Shown piece by piece: positions 2,851-58,338 of a stretch of DNA of 64,000 nt (within the stretch, counting starts at the first letter, position 1; each line of letters opens with the position of its first letter). The translations under genes and the position numbers were made by a program. The notes under the pieces were generated by a model. That model saw only the letters and a program-made list of their open reading frames with translations. It made no database searches and was not told the origin of the DNA. Source of the stretch: Escherichia coli (GTDB lineage Bacteria; Pseudomonadota; Gammaproteobacteria; Enterobacterales; Enterobacteriaceae); assembly GCF_965641715.1 (NCBI RefSeq), contig NZ_OZ282453.1; one strand, 5' to 3'.

Positions 2851-3240
2851 TCAGGCGGCTGCACCCGCCGGTTTCTCATACTTACTGATAGTGATCTCGA
2901 CCTTCCCTTTCGGGATAACCGGTCCCCACTCCACCAGCATTCTTTTCACCTGTCTGTCGTCTTCCCACACACCCGCGTGGGTCAGGGCGTCAAACAGCGC
3001 CTTGTTATAGTTGTCCAGATCGCGGATCCGGTTATCCGGAGGAAACAACACGATCTCCACTGAAGCAGGTGCCGACGTTGGTTTCGGCAGACGACGTAAC
3101 TGCTCAACTATTGCTGCGCATGCCGCGCTCTGGAATTTGCGCCCCGCTGCGCTTATCAGACTCTTACCAGCAAACGCCCCTTTGTTGGGGTGTCGCCAGT
3201 ACGTGTTCACGCTGGGCGGGAAAGGCAGGATCAGCTTCAT
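2851..3240 (-). CDS. rusA: Holliday junction resolvase RusA
   Basis: 129 aa; LPFPPSVNTYWRH ... IRDLDNYNKALFDALT motifs of the RusA family; lambdoid position upstream of Q. Confidence 0.75.
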   Translation of the reverse strand: MKLILPFPPSVNTYWRHPNKGAFAGKSLISAAGRKFQSAACAAIVEQLRRLPKPTSAPASVEIVLFPPDNRIRDLDNYNKALFDALTHAGVWEDDRQVKRMLVEWGPVIPKGKVEITISKYEKPAGAAA

Positions 3241-5105: not shown

Positions 5106-5934
5106 GACGATGCCCTCCGCTGATATTCAGGAAACGGTGAATATGAAGATTAGCCTTATCCGCCAGACGAATACGTTCAGCCTGCAAGTTAAGAAGGGTT
5201 TCTACCAGAACCTGATGCGCCTGCGGATCCGAAAGAGTTACCTTGCGCAGAGCACGTAGTGCAGTTGTTACATAGCTGAGTTTATGTAAGTCTTCATCAT
5301 TCAGACGAGTGAGGGCTGGGACAGTAGCCATGATGGCAGCCTCCGTATGCAATGGATAACTTCCACCACCGGAAACGCCAATTTCGCTGGTGGTGAACTG
5401 AGCAGGGTTGGCGTAACCGGCGCATACGGAAACCGGCGCACCTTTCGGTGCCCCCACCCAGCCCACCATAATTTGGGTATAGCTGAGTTGTAGCAACAAA
5501 AAAGACGCTAACGCGCCAATTGTCGCCGTATGCAATTCCAGGACGCCAATCCCGGCACCCGCTTTATAAGGTGCCTGAACAGTGTAACGTCCCGGAATGG
5601 CAGAATCAATGTGCTGGTGGTCCTTCACACTCAACAAAATCACGCCTGAATTTCCACAAAGGGCTAAAGCACTCATGCGGGTAGTCTTTGCGAAGATAGA
5701 TAACGCGCTGTGTTTCTGGTTCCCAACGAATAACATGGACATAAAGCCCTCTTCCGTCACGAAACCAGCGGTTAAGTTCCCGCACAACTCGCCCCCCACA
5801 GTCAGGTAAAGTTCTCTGTGGTTACTTACAGCCAGGTGATTTGGTAATCTGCATTCATGCCGTAACAACAGGTGTTCAGCGACACTGACCACCAGCTGTT
5901 GCGACAAACGGTTATTTGCCGTTAAACTGTTCAT
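5098..5934 (-). CDS. Hypothetical phage protein (early right operon)
   Basis: 278-aa ORF, co-oriented and overlapping neighbours; no motif recognised. Confidence 0.35.
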   Translation of the reverse strand: MNSLTANNRLSQQLVVSVAEHLLLRHECRLPNHLAVSNHRELYLTVGGELCGNLTAGFVTEEGFMSMLFVGNQKHSALSIFAKTTRMSALALCGNSGVILLSVKDHQHIDSAIPGRYTVQAPYKAGAGIGVLELHTATIGALASFLLLQLSYTQIMVGWVGAPKGAPVSVCAGYANPAQFTTSEIGVSGGGSYPLHTEAAIMATVPALTRLNDEDLHKLSYVTTALRALRKVTLSDPQAHQVLVETLLNLQAERIRLADKANLHIHRFLNISGGHRHA

Positions 5935-6726: not shown

Positions 6727-6816
6727 ACAATATGTACCTCCGATATACATATTACATGATTGAAATGAACCTTCAAGATACTTGTACCTTATCGGTACAA
6801 AGGTTTTAATTTCGTT
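6727..6816. promoter_or_regulatory. cI/cro intergenic switch region with operator-like palindromes
   Basis: Inverted repeat CTTGTACC-TTATC-GGTACAAAG at 6781-6802 and further TGTAC-containing sites at 6727-6757. Confidence 0.45.
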
Positions 6817-7491
6817 ATGAAAACAATCCATGACATCCGGCGGTCTAACGCCAGAAAACTGAGAGATGGTGTTGGCGGGAATTCTTCCTTTGCCACCATG
6901 ATTGATCGCGAGCCAACCCAGACCAGCAGGTTTATGGGAGATGGTGCTACTAAAAATATCGGTGACAGCATGGCGCGGCACATCGAAAAATGTTTCGACC
7001 TGCCTGTCGGATGGCTTGATCAAGAACACCAGACCACGAACATCACAAAAAAACCTGATGTTTCAATCACTAACAAACAAATAACGTTAGTCCCTGTCAT
7101 ATCATGGGTACAGGCCGGAGCATGGAAAGAAGTTGGCTATTCTGAGGTTGATTTGAGCACAGCAGAAACTTACCCCTGCCCTGTACCCTGTGGCGAAATG
7201 ACTTATATCTTGCGGGTGATTGGTGATTCAATGATTGATGAGTACCGCCCTGGAGACATGATTTTTGTTGATCCCGAAGTCCCTGCCTGCCACGGTGACG
7301 ACGTTATTGCATTGATGCACGATACAGGCGAAACCACCTTCAAGCGATTGATAGAAGATGGAACACAGCGTTATCTCAAAGCATTAAACCCAAACTGGCC
7401 TGAGCCTTACATTAAGATTAACGGTAATTGCTCTATAATTGGTACAGTGATTTTCTCGGGAAAACCAAGAAGATACACAATAAAGGCCTAA
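6817..7491 (+). CDS. CI-like phage repressor (HTH plus S24 LexA-like peptidase domain)
   Basis: 224 aa; C-terminal ILRVIGDSMIDEYRPGDMIFVDP with the Ser-Lys dyad context of the S24 family. Confidence 0.75.
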   Translation: MKTIHDIRRSNARKLRDGVGGNSSFATMIDREPTQTSRFMGDGATKNIGDSMARHIEKCFDLPVGWLDQEHQTTNITKKPDVSITNKQITLVPVISWVQAGAWKEVGYSEVDLSTAETYPCPVPCGEMTYILRVIGDSMIDEYRPGDMIFVDPEVPACHGDDVIALMHDTGETTFKRLIEDGTQRYLKALNPNWPEPYIKINGNCSIIGTVIFSGKPRRYTIKA

Positions 7492-7949
7492 TCAATATTT
7501 ATGAACCTGCTTCGGCAGGTTTTTTTATACTTGACAATGTACCCATGGGATACATAATGTATCCAAAAGAAACATGAGGCAGGCAAGATTCAAACAAAAT
7601 TTGGTTGTAACACGGCGTATGGCACATGCGTCGTTAGCGGTCTGGGGACGTTAAAGGGGACAATCCACTTCTTGCTCGGGCAAACAAACCAGGTAGCCGG
7701 AATGTGCAAGTCAATGATGATGCTGATAAGACGCCTAACCAGCGTGGCGATCCGGTTTGACGCCTGGGAAGAGACCAGGGTGCAACGATGAGGGCATTTA
7801 TAGAGCCGCGACAAAGTGTGGTGCCGTAACTGGCTAAGTGCTCTCAGCGTTGTGGTAATCCGCGAAATGGCGCGGCGGTAAGTATGGCGGGGTTACTCTT
7901 TCCCCGTTGAGGACACCGGATTGTCAGGTTGACCATACGCCTGAGTGAC

Positions 7950-8025
7950 AACCCCACCACAACAGCCACTGCTTTGGCGGTACCAGTTTGTACACTTGCT
8001 TCCGGCTGGTACCGCTCTTTTTACA
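7950..8025 (+). ncRNA. DicF-like small RNA / terminator hairpin (approximate bounds)
   Basis: TTTGGCGGTACCAGTTT ... CTGGTACCGCT stem followed by CTTTTT; resembles the recalled DicF 3' structure in the analogous operon position. Confidence 0.3.
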
Positions 8026-8159
8026 AAACAGAGAAGAGCATCACCGGACGACGGGCTCATAACCCAATCCATCCGGGCGGCTGCCACCGCAGGTGTTCTT
8101 CTCTGTTTTGTGGAGAAACCAACCGACCTTGCAGGGTCGATATGATGAGGAGCAGCAAA

Positions 8160-8522
8160 ATGGCTAGCGAACGCAGTACTGATGTGCAGGCATTTATCGG
8201 GGAGCTGGACGGCGGCGTATTTGAAACCAAAATCGGCGCAGTTCTCAGTGAAGTCGCTTCCGGTGTGATGAACACGAAAACCAAAGGTAAGGTCTCACTC
8301 AACCTGGAAATCGAACCATTTGATGAGAACCGTGTGAAAATCAAACACAAACTCTCATATGTTCGCCCGACTAACCGCGGGAAAATTTCCGAAGAAGACA
8401 CCACCGAAACGCCGATGTATGTCAATCGCGGTGGTCGCCTGACTATTCTGCAGGAAGACCAGGGACAATTACTGACTCTTGCCGGTGAACCTGACGGAAA
8501 ACTCCGCGCAGCAGGTCATTAA
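8160..8522 (+). CDS. YfdP-like phage protein
   Basis: 120 aa from the ATG after GAGGAG; the ORF track starts earlier at 7929; first gene of the yfdP-T-like module. Confidence 0.4.
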   Translation: MASERSTDVQAFIGELDGGVFETKIGAVLSEVASGVMNTKTKGKVSLNLEIEPFDENRVKIKHKLSYVRPTNRGKISEEDTTETPMYVNRGGRLTILQEDQGQLLTLAGEPDGKLRAAGH

Positions 8523-19735: not shown

Positions 19736-19905
<170 letters not shown>

Positions 19906-20028: not shown

Positions 20029-20115
20029 GCGAAGGTGGCGGAATTGGTAGACGCGCTAGCTTCAGGTGTTAGTGTCCTTACGGACGTGGGGGTTCAAGTC
20101 CCCCCCCTCGCACCA
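20029..20115 (+). tRNA. leuQ: tRNA-Leu (anticodon CAG)
   Basis: 87-nt sequence GCGAAGGTGGCGGAATTGGTAGACGCG ... CCCTCGCACCA; anticodon loop CTTCAGGTG. Confidence 0.9.
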
Positions 20116-20143
20116 AAAACCACGTTGATATTGCTCGCACTGG

Positions 20144-20230
20144 GCGAAGGTGGCGGAATTGGTAGACGCGCTAGCTTCAGGTGTTAGTGTTCTTACGGAC
20201 GTGGGGGTTCAAGTCCCCCCCCTCGCACCA
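20144..20230 (+). tRNA. leuP: tRNA-Leu (anticodon CAG), one substitution relative to the flanking copies
   Basis: 87-nt copy; variable-arm difference GTGTTCTTACGG versus GTGTCCTTACGG. Confidence 0.9.
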
Positions 20231-20264
20231 AACGAGGCGATATCAAAAAAAGTAAGATGACTGT

Positions 20265-20351
20265 GCGAAGGTGGCGGAATTGGTAGACGCGCTAGCTTCA
20301 GGTGTTAGTGTCCTTACGGACGTGGGGGTTCAAGTCCCCCCCCTCGCACCA
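20265..20351 (+). tRNA. leuV: tRNA-Leu (anticodon CAG)
   Basis: 87-nt copy identical to the first. Confidence 0.9.
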
Positions 20352-57776: not shown

Positions 57777-57996
57777 TTCCCTCGCCCTCAAAAAACCAAT
57801 AAAGCGGCTAAATAGCCGCTTTATTCACATCACCAAAAATTATATTTCACGCTAAACTTCATCTTATTTTCATTAATTTTTAGCTGGACTTCCCCTGTAT
57901 TTACTGATGATATATCCAGGTATTTAGCGCGGTGCGGATGTGCGCCAACACACCCGCACCGCTAATCACAATCCCTATTTCTAAGGAATAGTAATC

Positions 57997-58338
57997 ATGA
58001 CTGACACGCATTCTATTGCACAACCGTTCGAAGCAGAAGTCTCCCCGGCAAATAACCGTCAATTAACCGTGAGTTATGCGAGCCGCTACCCGGATTACAG
58101 CCGTATTCCCGCCATCACCCTGAAAGGTCAGTGGCTGGAAGCCGCCGGTTTTGCCACTGGCACGGCGGTAGATGTCAAAGTGATGGAAGGCTGTATTGTC
58201 CTCACCGCCCAACCCGCCGCCGCCGAAGAGAGCGAACTGATGCAGTCACTACGCCAGGTGTGCAAACTGTCGGCGCGTAAACAAAAGCAGGTGCGGGAAT
58301 TTATTGGGGTGATTGCGGGTAAACAGAAAGTCGCCTGA
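57997..58338 (+). CDS. symE: SOS-induced toxin-like protein SymE
   Basis: 113 aa starting [34 protein letters not shown]; matches recalled K-12 SymE; adjacent to hsdS as in K-12. Confidence 0.8.

Follow-up and report, generated by a model that had tools for sequence, protein, structure and literature searches.

In an Escherichia coli prophage contained in a 64,000-nucleotide (nt) stretch of DNA (contig NZ_OZ282453.1; the whole stretch is referred to as the window), about 650 bp separate the gene for a cI-like repressor from the coding sequence (CDS) of a gene whose homologue is named yfdP in RefSeq. What does this gap specify, if not protein? A search for open reading frames (ORFs) between the two genes found nothing convincing: none exceeded 74 amino acids (aa) and none started with ATG, the longest being of 74 aa (minus strand, TTG start) and 66 aa (GTG start). 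An earlier interpretation made from the letters of the DNA alone (the sequence-only reading) had likewise seen no convincing ORF here. Some part of the gap was found by BLAST in 4,729 of 5,426 complete E. coli genomes, and at least 80% of it in 899 of them. The best overall explanation, which taken as a whole we consider probable, is that the stretch forms the leader of the prophage's early-left (PL) operon, untranslated and rich in structure, and that the dicF locus of the Qin prophage is represented in its 3′ third, in the form carried by this phage.

A structured leader under repressor control

A promoter scan identified a strong PL-type σ70 promoter shortly after the repressor gene, next to the terminator of the repressor transcript (Table 1). 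Its counterpart in phage Ayreon carries a promoter annotation, and the predicted transcription start lies near position 7565. The operator in the promoter spacer is of the type TGTACC-N5-GRTACA, which also occurs at 6733–6749 and 6783–6799, between cro and cI; five matches to this type were observed against 0.22 expected by chance. Because the promoter is combined with the shared operator type, we regard the stretch as the leader of a repressor-controlled early-left operon. The counterpart of the intrinsic terminator of the repressor transcript is annotated as a terminator in phages Ayreon and SfV. Folding of the predicted transcript (7565–8175) gave −233.6 kcal/mol, compared with −203.2 ± 5.6 kcal/mol for shuffled sequences (z = −5.5). 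A scan of 7500–8160 against Rfam 15 gave no match at the gathering score, and at E ≤ 10 the 901 nt from 7400 to 8300 gave only chance-level matches, on the cI terminator. The sequence-only reading had described two stems near the 3′ end of the gap; it overlooked two further conserved structured RNA domains, which make up most of the 650 bp.

A positional homologue of the Qin dicF locus

Positions 7849–7955 are 93.5% identical to the approximately 107 nt directly upstream of dicF in K-12 (locus L001, 3001–3107), which upholds the earlier suggestion that the operon is equivalent to the one that holds dicF in Qin. BLAST returned the same part, at 92–94% identity, from a K-12 derivative and from many other sampled genomes. 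In the K-12 derivative the match sits between ydfC and dicB and ends 26 nt before DicF as located by Rfam (3133–3184). Pairwise alignment shows, in order, near-identity, a gap of about 18 nt at the DicF seed, TTTGGCGGTA.CAGTTT, divergence and then a common CCGC.CTTTTTA. Both slots lie downstream of a repressor gene and a repressor-controlled promoter; both hairpins have the 5′ arm UUUGGCGGUA and a closing U-tail, and in both loci a long stem, of unrelated sequence, follows right after the hairpin and precedes the ribosome-binding site of the next gene. The two loci differ in the loop and 3′ arm of the hairpin, in the absence from the window of the DicF seed and of the RNase E site region, and in their flanks: the window has a structured RNA module upstream and yfdP downstream, whereas Qin has ydfABC and dicB. 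Alignment and gene order make the window locus a positional homologue of dicF in Qin.

The hairpin at the DicF position is one of many alleles

The hairpin consists of TTTGGCGGTACCAGTTT at 7973–7989 and CTGGTACCGCTCTTTTT at 8006–8022, with a folding energy of −21.2 kcal/mol. Its perfect arms span 7977–7986 and 8006–8015 (11 pairs if G7976–U8016 is counted), and CUCUUUUU follows. The base of the 3′ arm is CCGCU, which produces the closing G–U pair. With the arms GGCGGUACCAG and CUGGUACCGCU, the structure is a terminator hairpin with a U-tail, as in DicF. The 11-bp hairpin and T-run that had been placed at 7974–8022 are therefore real, their coordinates being one position off. The sequence TTTGGCGGTA[C/T]CAGTTT is common to the window hairpin and DicF, with 16 of 17 bases identical.

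Anchoring on the conserved upstream segment recovered the DicF slot in at least 123 loci, where it is occupied by canonical DicF, by the window hairpin or by several others. The window hairpin is the second commonest allele, at about 40 of these loci. At least 13 distinct arm sequences were found, and all of them fold as UUGGCGG...CCGCC(C)UUUU hairpins with energies of −16 to −23 kcal/mol. Sequence comparison thus indicates that the hairpin is kept by compensatory changes among at least 13 alleles, canonical DicF being another allele; the covariation analysis across related prophages that the sequence-only reading had proposed came out, between alleles, in favour of the hairpin. The window hairpin is a distinct allele and not a member of the DicF family.

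Two further observations concern this hairpin. A CU-rich motif is often common to the apex of module helix H2 (approximately 7645–7690) and the terminator loop (7987–8005) within one phage; the examples, spotted by eye, are CUUGCU in the window, UCCCUUG in TL-2011b and UUCCUUGC in locus L263, and the motif is anti-Shine–Dalgarno-like. An antiterminator pairing of an upstream GGCGGUA with the 3′ arm of the terminator was considered and rejected, as the terminator of locus L004 is GGUGG/CCACC with no corresponding upstream change and that of P1 is unrelated.

A pseudoknotted domain shared with P1

The segment conserved upstream of dicF belongs to a domain for which we propose a closing helix, three hairpins and a pseudoknot (Table 1). 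In 43 distinct sequences, from which the structure had itself been proposed and among which divergence is modest, standard pairs occupied 96.1% of cells, compared with 33–58% when the partners were slid, and nine pairs were altered on both sides, compared with 2.3 in shuffles (0 of 500 shuffles reached the observed value). The pseudoknot covaries in P1, where it is GCAUGG × CCAUGC. Support for the domain structure from covariation in these alignments is good but not final. A covariance model of the domain gave a single match in the window (7844–7972, 147.8 bits) and none near the put sites of phage HK022; neither the domain nor the 5′ module described below has a second copy in the window, for example on the PR side.

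The domain is also present in P1, P7, Salmonella phage F1055, phage pPE4 and a Citrobacter genome. The matches listed by a 16-mer scan of genome contigs were mostly chance ones in unrelated bacteria, the real ones among them being in E. albertii, a Citrobacter and one metagenome-assembled genome, and a text search of the literature for the conserved sequences found no paper. In P1 and P7 the same domain, with 75–81% identity and compensatory changes, forms the “dicF-like region” of the ban operon, so labelled in the P1 record, just after the C1-controlled Pban promoter. As in the window, it comes right after a repressor-controlled promoter and is followed by an intrinsic terminator; the P1 terminator sequence is unrelated to that of the window (GCCCAUCUUCGGGUGGGC), and the closing helix differs in sequence and register. 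Domain and terminator lie about 45 nt after Pban in P1 and would give a primary transcript of about 185 nt, near the approximately 175 nt predicted below for the window.

Several features of these relatives were recorded in passing. The P1 ban operon (locus L125, 2485–2611 and 4773–4956) contains both RNA domains, 2.3 kb apart; a partial 5′ module lies between trnI and ban and is followed by CUGAUUUUCUGGUGAUGA, which resembles the DicF 5′ seed. Phage pPE4 (locus L128, 1970–2300), labelled an Actinobacillus phage, has an E. coli-type DicA-like immunity region; its copy of the domain lacks the 5′ closing strand, and a DicF-slot hairpin is duplicated in tandem. Two other identities for the domain were rejected. 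The sequence GGCGGTAAGTATG resembles the RfaH ops site GGCGGTAGNNTG with one A inserted, and P7 alters the critical T (GGCGGCAAG); this reading was dropped, since the pseudoknot GUAUGG × CCAUAC, with its covariation in P1, accounts for the conserved bases. A transfer RNA (tRNA)-like identity was discarded since ARAGORN found nothing in the 115 nt and Rfam gave no tRNA match.

A 5′ module widespread in temperate phages

The second domain, the 5′ leader module, was followed through 72 diverse representatives from viral contigs, taken from the matches listed by a scan for its invariant 19-mer. RNAalifold, applied to 29 diverse module sequences, predicted 28 pairs, 12 of them with compensatory changes, and invariant single-stranded stretches separate variable hairpins. 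The module recurs at 75–98% identity in four settings: lambdoid early-left leaders, P1 (between trnI and ban), phage D6, and epsilon15-like phages of Escherichia, Salmonella, Klebsiella and Enterobacter, where it lies in large gaps without coding sequence. Rfam gave no match to it at E ≤ 10. On the strength of these alignments, the module is a covariation-supported structured RNA that has no Rfam match and is widespread in temperate phages.

Its surroundings are regular. A promoter was recognisable in 24 of 73 representatives, and in these the module begins either 6–8 nt or about 48–55 nt after the −10 hexamer; in the window, H1 begins 54 nt after it. An intrinsic terminator, mostly of the UUGGCGG type, lies within 900 nt downstream in 68 of 72 representatives. 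In the window the 3′ strand of the terminal helix is UGCUCUCAG; many relatives have UGCUCUUUCC or UGCUCUUUUU there, and GUUGUGG comes next. The strand (7837–7853), predicted to be base-paired, resembles boxA (UGCUCUUUA-like, and single-stranded in N/nut or rrn-type antitermination) and boxC of rrn and nut sites.

Predicted processing and release of a small RNA

The stem that follows the hairpin has perfect 15-bp arms, ACAAAACAGAGAAGA at 8023–8037 and TCTTCTCTGTTTTGT at 8097–8111, with 59 nt between them; the extended arms of 25 nt are 84% complementary and enclose 39 nt. No other perfect 15-bp inverted repeat whose loop is up to 100 nt is present in the window, and none occurred in 30 shuffles. 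The sequence-only reading had the perfect pairing right and its position wrong (8026–8040 with 8081–8095, the second arm 16 nt off), and its loop of about 40 nt agrees with the extended arms and not with the perfect ones. Phage F1055 has one compensatory pair in this stem. In variants with different downstream genes the module boundary falls after GUGGAGAAAC(C/U)AA. By analogy with Qin, the stem is predicted to be a ribonuclease (RNase) III processing stem that divides the RNA from the downstream mRNA.

Three DicF species of Qin provide the basis for this prediction: one of 190 nt, whose 5′ end is made by RNase III, one of 53 nt, whose 5′ end is made by RNase E (PMC10448788), and one of 72 nt, whose 3′ end is made by RNase III (PMC5069750). 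We placed these ends on the K-12 sequence by our own coordinate arithmetic and not from a published map; so placed, the 190-nt 5′ end falls in the helix GAAAGCGCAUGG/CCGUGCGCUUCC, on its 3′ strand, the helix directly adjoining the 5′ side of the conserved segment, and the 72-nt 3′ end inside the 5′ arm of the long post-DicF stem GUGAAUUUUGUGAUG...CAUCACAAAAUUCAU. The predicted structures of the window include counterparts of both helices, namely the terminal helix of the 5′ module and the long stem. These two counterparts, together with the synteny and homology with dicF, speak for a processing reading.

If the window behaves as Qin does, RNA polymerase would either stop at the hairpin or read through it, and RNase III would cut the terminal helix of the module (at approximately 7840–7850) and the stem after the hairpin. 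These cuts would free an RNA of about 175 nt (approximately 7846–8022), in which a short linker would join the conserved domain to the hairpin and U-tail, with the hairpin as the presumed 3′ end. Such an RNA would be a base-pairing regulator of the DicF type, probably dependent on Hfq; its specificity would reside in the allele-specific hairpin loop and the linker, and the target of this allele would not be ftsZ. The likeliest role of the locus is, on the Qin analogy, to supply a processed DicF-type RNA of about 175 nt with a different target. The view of the gap as a processed small RNA (sRNA) locus or a processing structure, already put forward by the sequence-only reading, is right in its framing, given the dicF homology, the post-DicF stem of K-12 and the at least 13 compensating alleles. 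Homology, architecture and conservation were established here by comparison; processing by RNase III, release of the RNA and action in trans we infer from Qin.

A number of points weigh against this interpretation. Every processing step is carried over from Qin. The homologues were collected with exact-match anchors, so their diversity is undersampled and biased, and the hairpin and long stem are nearly invariant inside the window allele, so that their support comes from the between-allele comparison. The Rfam DicF model (RF00039), with which K-12 DicF scores 76.7 bits, gave no match in 7400–8300 at E ≤ 10; on 7940–8035 alone (96 nt) DicF was the top Rfam match, with 11.8 bits (E = 2) against a gathering score of 48, and the match covers model positions 12–52 only. 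The single-stranded 5′ seed of DicF, UUUCUGGUGACG, which pairs with xylR (PMC5069750), is absent from the window, where the alignment has its gap. In a crude duplexfold test, complementarity to ftsZ gave duplexes of −24.1 to −26.9 kcal/mol, weaker than the shuffle mean (z of about +1.3), compared with −38.5 kcal/mol for K-12 DicF and the ftsZ leader. The likeness to DicF originally perceived thus extends to the 16 of 17 bases, the slot, the 5′ arm and the U-tail, but not to the DicF model, the seed or ftsZ complementarity, and the scan with that model, suggested as a check, came out negative.

The prophage anti-sRNAs AgvB and AsxR, which are encoded at the PR′ moron site as primary transcripts of 51–60 nt with a variable 5′ end (PMC4104026), offer a parallel: like the window locus, they are a prophage sRNA family at a fixed position of the phage map, with a conserved part and a variable targeting part. 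For the window locus a processed RNA is predicted, and variation lies in the loop and stem of the terminator. Identity with AgvB or AsxR was rejected, as these are located at a different phage locus. The motif CACAACA at 7957–7963 (in ACCACAACAGCC), where the 3′ strand of the closing helix runs into the linker before the hairpin, corresponds to the GcvB R1 target consensus used by AgvB; this may be a coincidence, and much of the motif is predicted to be paired.

A mosaic with a cassette slot

The contents of the leader vary at the junction ...AGUGCUCUCAGCGUUGUGG. In the window the DicF-upstream domain comes next; in mEp460 and 1720a-02 a different segment of about 120 nt follows, closed by the same helix (GUUGUGGUGA/UCACCACAAC); and in TL-2011b, phiV10 and BUCT711 a tRNA-Arg(UCU) takes the place of the domain. 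The hairpin and long stem of the window are also found before different downstream genes. Because of these variable junction contents and changing neighbours, we describe the region as a mosaic of exchangeable RNA modules. In TL-2011b (locus L250, 1500–1960), the tRNA-Arg(UCU) occupies 1742–1818, and about 45 nt later there is a DicF-type hairpin, CUUGGCGGUGAUGG...CUAUCACCGCCCUUUUU, and a further stem.

GOLLD and ROOL are large phage-associated structured non-coding RNAs found next to tRNAs. The leader is like them a long (>500 nt), ornate non-coding RNA of temperate phages, and in the three relatives just named that carry a tRNA-Arg it sits in an internal slot; there is no sequence or Rfam relationship, and the hosts on the side of the window are enterobacteria.

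Table 1. Positions of the RNA elements and other features in the window
Feature	Position	Strand	Remarks
Intergenic stretch, ~650 bp	Between cI-like repressor gene (6817–7491) and yfdP-like CDS (8160–8522)		
Intrinsic terminator of cI-like repressor transcript	7503–7522	+	GAACCTGCTTCGGCAGGTTT + T-run; terminator scan
PL-type σ70 promoter	7531–7558	+	TTGACA-16-CATAAT, 11/12 consensus positions; promoter scan
17-bp operator	7538–7554		TGTACCCATGGGATACA; overlaps PL-type promoter, within spacer
5′ leader module, ~240 nt, five helices	7610–7853	+	Conserved structured RNA
Module helix H1	7613–7621/7625–7633		
Module invariant 19-mer	7692–7710		GGUAGCCGGAAUGUGCAAG
Module helix H4	7731–7734/7742–7745		Loop CUAACCA
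Module helix H5	7763–7767/7775–7779		Loop GAAGAGA
Module long terminal helix	7783–7798/7837–7853		
Pseudoknotted domain, ~115 nt	7849–7963	+	Homologue of 5′ body of 190-nt long DicF
Domain closing helix	7849–7856/7956–7963		
Domain hairpin Ha	7860–7864/7871–7875		
Domain hairpin Hb	7888–7892/7902–7906		
Domain hairpin Hc	7918–7926/7946–7954		
Domain pseudoknot	7882–7887 × 7933–7938		GUAUGG × CCAUAC
DicF-position hairpin	7973–8022	+	UUUGGCGGUACCAG / 19-nt loop / CUGGUACCGCU + CUUUUU; intrinsic terminator
Long stem directly 3′ of U-tail	8023–8111	+	Extended arms 8023–8047 and 8087–8111
Small hairpin	8124–8139	+	CGACC-UUGCAG-GGUCG
Shine–Dalgarno sequence of yfdP-like gene	8147–8152	+	GAGGAG; ATG at 8160
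Three tandem tRNA-Leu(CAG) genes, naRNA4 repeat, SymR	20029–20351, 19807–19889, 57926–58002		

Alternative explanations

The alternative that survives best, though we hold it only tentatively, is that the leader acts mainly in cis as a protein-independent processive antiterminator, an analogue of the put RNA of HK022, whose suppression of termination in cis depends on the β′ zinc-binding domain of RNA polymerase; it is compatible with the sRNA reading. The 5′ module would fold on the nascent transcript, modify RNA polymerase and let it pass the terminator at 7976–8022 into yfdP and the rest of the early-left operon. With no ORF separating the promoter from the yfdP-like gene, an N-type gene is missing downstream of the promoter, and a put-like mechanism has been suggested for N-less lambdoids that carry yfdP/Q/R (PMC12315714). 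Position speaks for such a role: the module stands close after a promoter and upstream of a terminator in the proportions given above, as the put RNAs of HK022 and HK639 stand just downstream of early promoters and upstream of terminators, and it is found in phages with no N gene at the corresponding position. In the viral contigs L350, L272 and L321, whose PL promoter and operator are homologues of those in HK022, the module takes the place of putL. Visual comparison shows some resemblance to put (ACGGCG..CAUGCGUCG and CAGG..CGG.AAUG). However, nhmmer profiles built from 3 and from 44 put sequences found nothing in the module while detecting the puts themselves (E of 1e-13 to 1e-21), and homology to put at the sequence level was accordingly rejected and kept as a positional analogy. 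Moreover, the module has five helices and a long terminal helix over about 240 nt compared with the two stems and about 70 nt of put; the partial module of P1 lies well within the ban operon, and no obvious terminator follows it; and a general antiterminator would not lead one to expect a conserved sequence in the terminator downstream. Because the put profiles miss the module and Rfam, holding no put family, is uninformative on put, the module may have a put-like role as a position-based hypothesis only.

A wider proposal, speculative and in our view rather doubtful, would unite these elements: the 5′ module, a helix-closed cassette slot and a UUGGCGG...CCGCC terminator might constitute a new, widespread class of phage early-leader RNA. 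In lambdoid, P1-like and epsilon15-like phages that lack N, the module would stand in for put or N as an RNA-only processive antiterminator, and an exchangeable cargo, of sRNAs with allele-specific seeds or of tRNAs, would be cut out at the RNase III helices on either side.

It is improbable that the stretch is only a terminator with decayed gene remnants (of ydfABC or N-like genes), whose stems merely stop transcription. The hairpin is a strong intrinsic terminator, the SfV flanks carry an ORF and a terminator instead, and Qin has ydfA, B and C upstream. Decay is at odds with the compensatory changes and invariant loops of both upstream domains across lambdoid, P1-like and epsilon15-like phages, with hairpin lengths that vary irrespective of reading frame, and with the 899 genomes that retain at least 80% of the stretch.

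Still less likely is an ordinary, somewhat diverged DicF gene, that is, a cell-division inhibitor repressing ftsZ. It would account for the slot, the 5′ arm UUUGGCGGUA.CAGUUU, the U-tail and the top Rfam rank of DicF on the 96 nt, but the score is far below the gathering threshold, the 5′ seed is missing, and the loop that pairs with the ftsZ ribosome-binding site is replaced in the window, leaving a duplex weaker than shuffled sequences give.

That the stretch encodes small proteins is hardly credible: hypothetical ORFs are annotated here in Ayreon, mEp460 and cdtI, and two window ORFs match PHROG families of unknown function, but these ORFs are of 39–74 aa with TTG or GTG starts, only the C-terminal half of phrog_3651 matches (what remains would lie antisense to yfdP and is disrupted here), relatives show 1-nt indels or have whole segments swapped for tRNA or other RNA cassettes, and the covariation follows RNA helices. 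We regard the small ORFs as spurious. The family phrog_3651 (162 positions) corresponds to an ORF antisense to yfdP and split by a stop, at 8057–8425 and 7893–8087 (minus strand) in the window, and was probably built from spurious annotations.

Other features of the window

On the minus strand at 5386–5574, downstream of cro and cII-like genes, Rfam identified a C4 antisense RNA (80.7 bits) beside an isrK RNA (61.2 bits), both inside an 837-bp ORF that relatives annotate as “immunity region”. In appearance the pair is an early-right control module of the P1 immI/antirepressor type. From the tRNA-Leu(CAG) genes, naRNA4 and SymR it follows that, within the window, E. coli chromosome flanks the prophage on one side at least.

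Implications

DicF has so far been regarded as one sRNA, 53 nt long, from a single cryptic prophage. Here its slot proves polymorphic, with at least 13 hairpin alleles that have the base and the U-tail in common but not the stem and loop. Conservation in the locus is highest in the pseudoknotted upstream domain, which is also found in P1, and this shifts the targets for mutation and probing of “long DicF”. With the 5′ module in the slot of putL, the way in which N-less lambdoids of the yfdP/Q/R type pass early terminators becomes directly testable. As a whole, the reading favoured here, that of a processed DicF-type RNA, predicts that prophage sRNAs with other targets would be found in approximately 900 of the 5,426 complete E. 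coli genomes.

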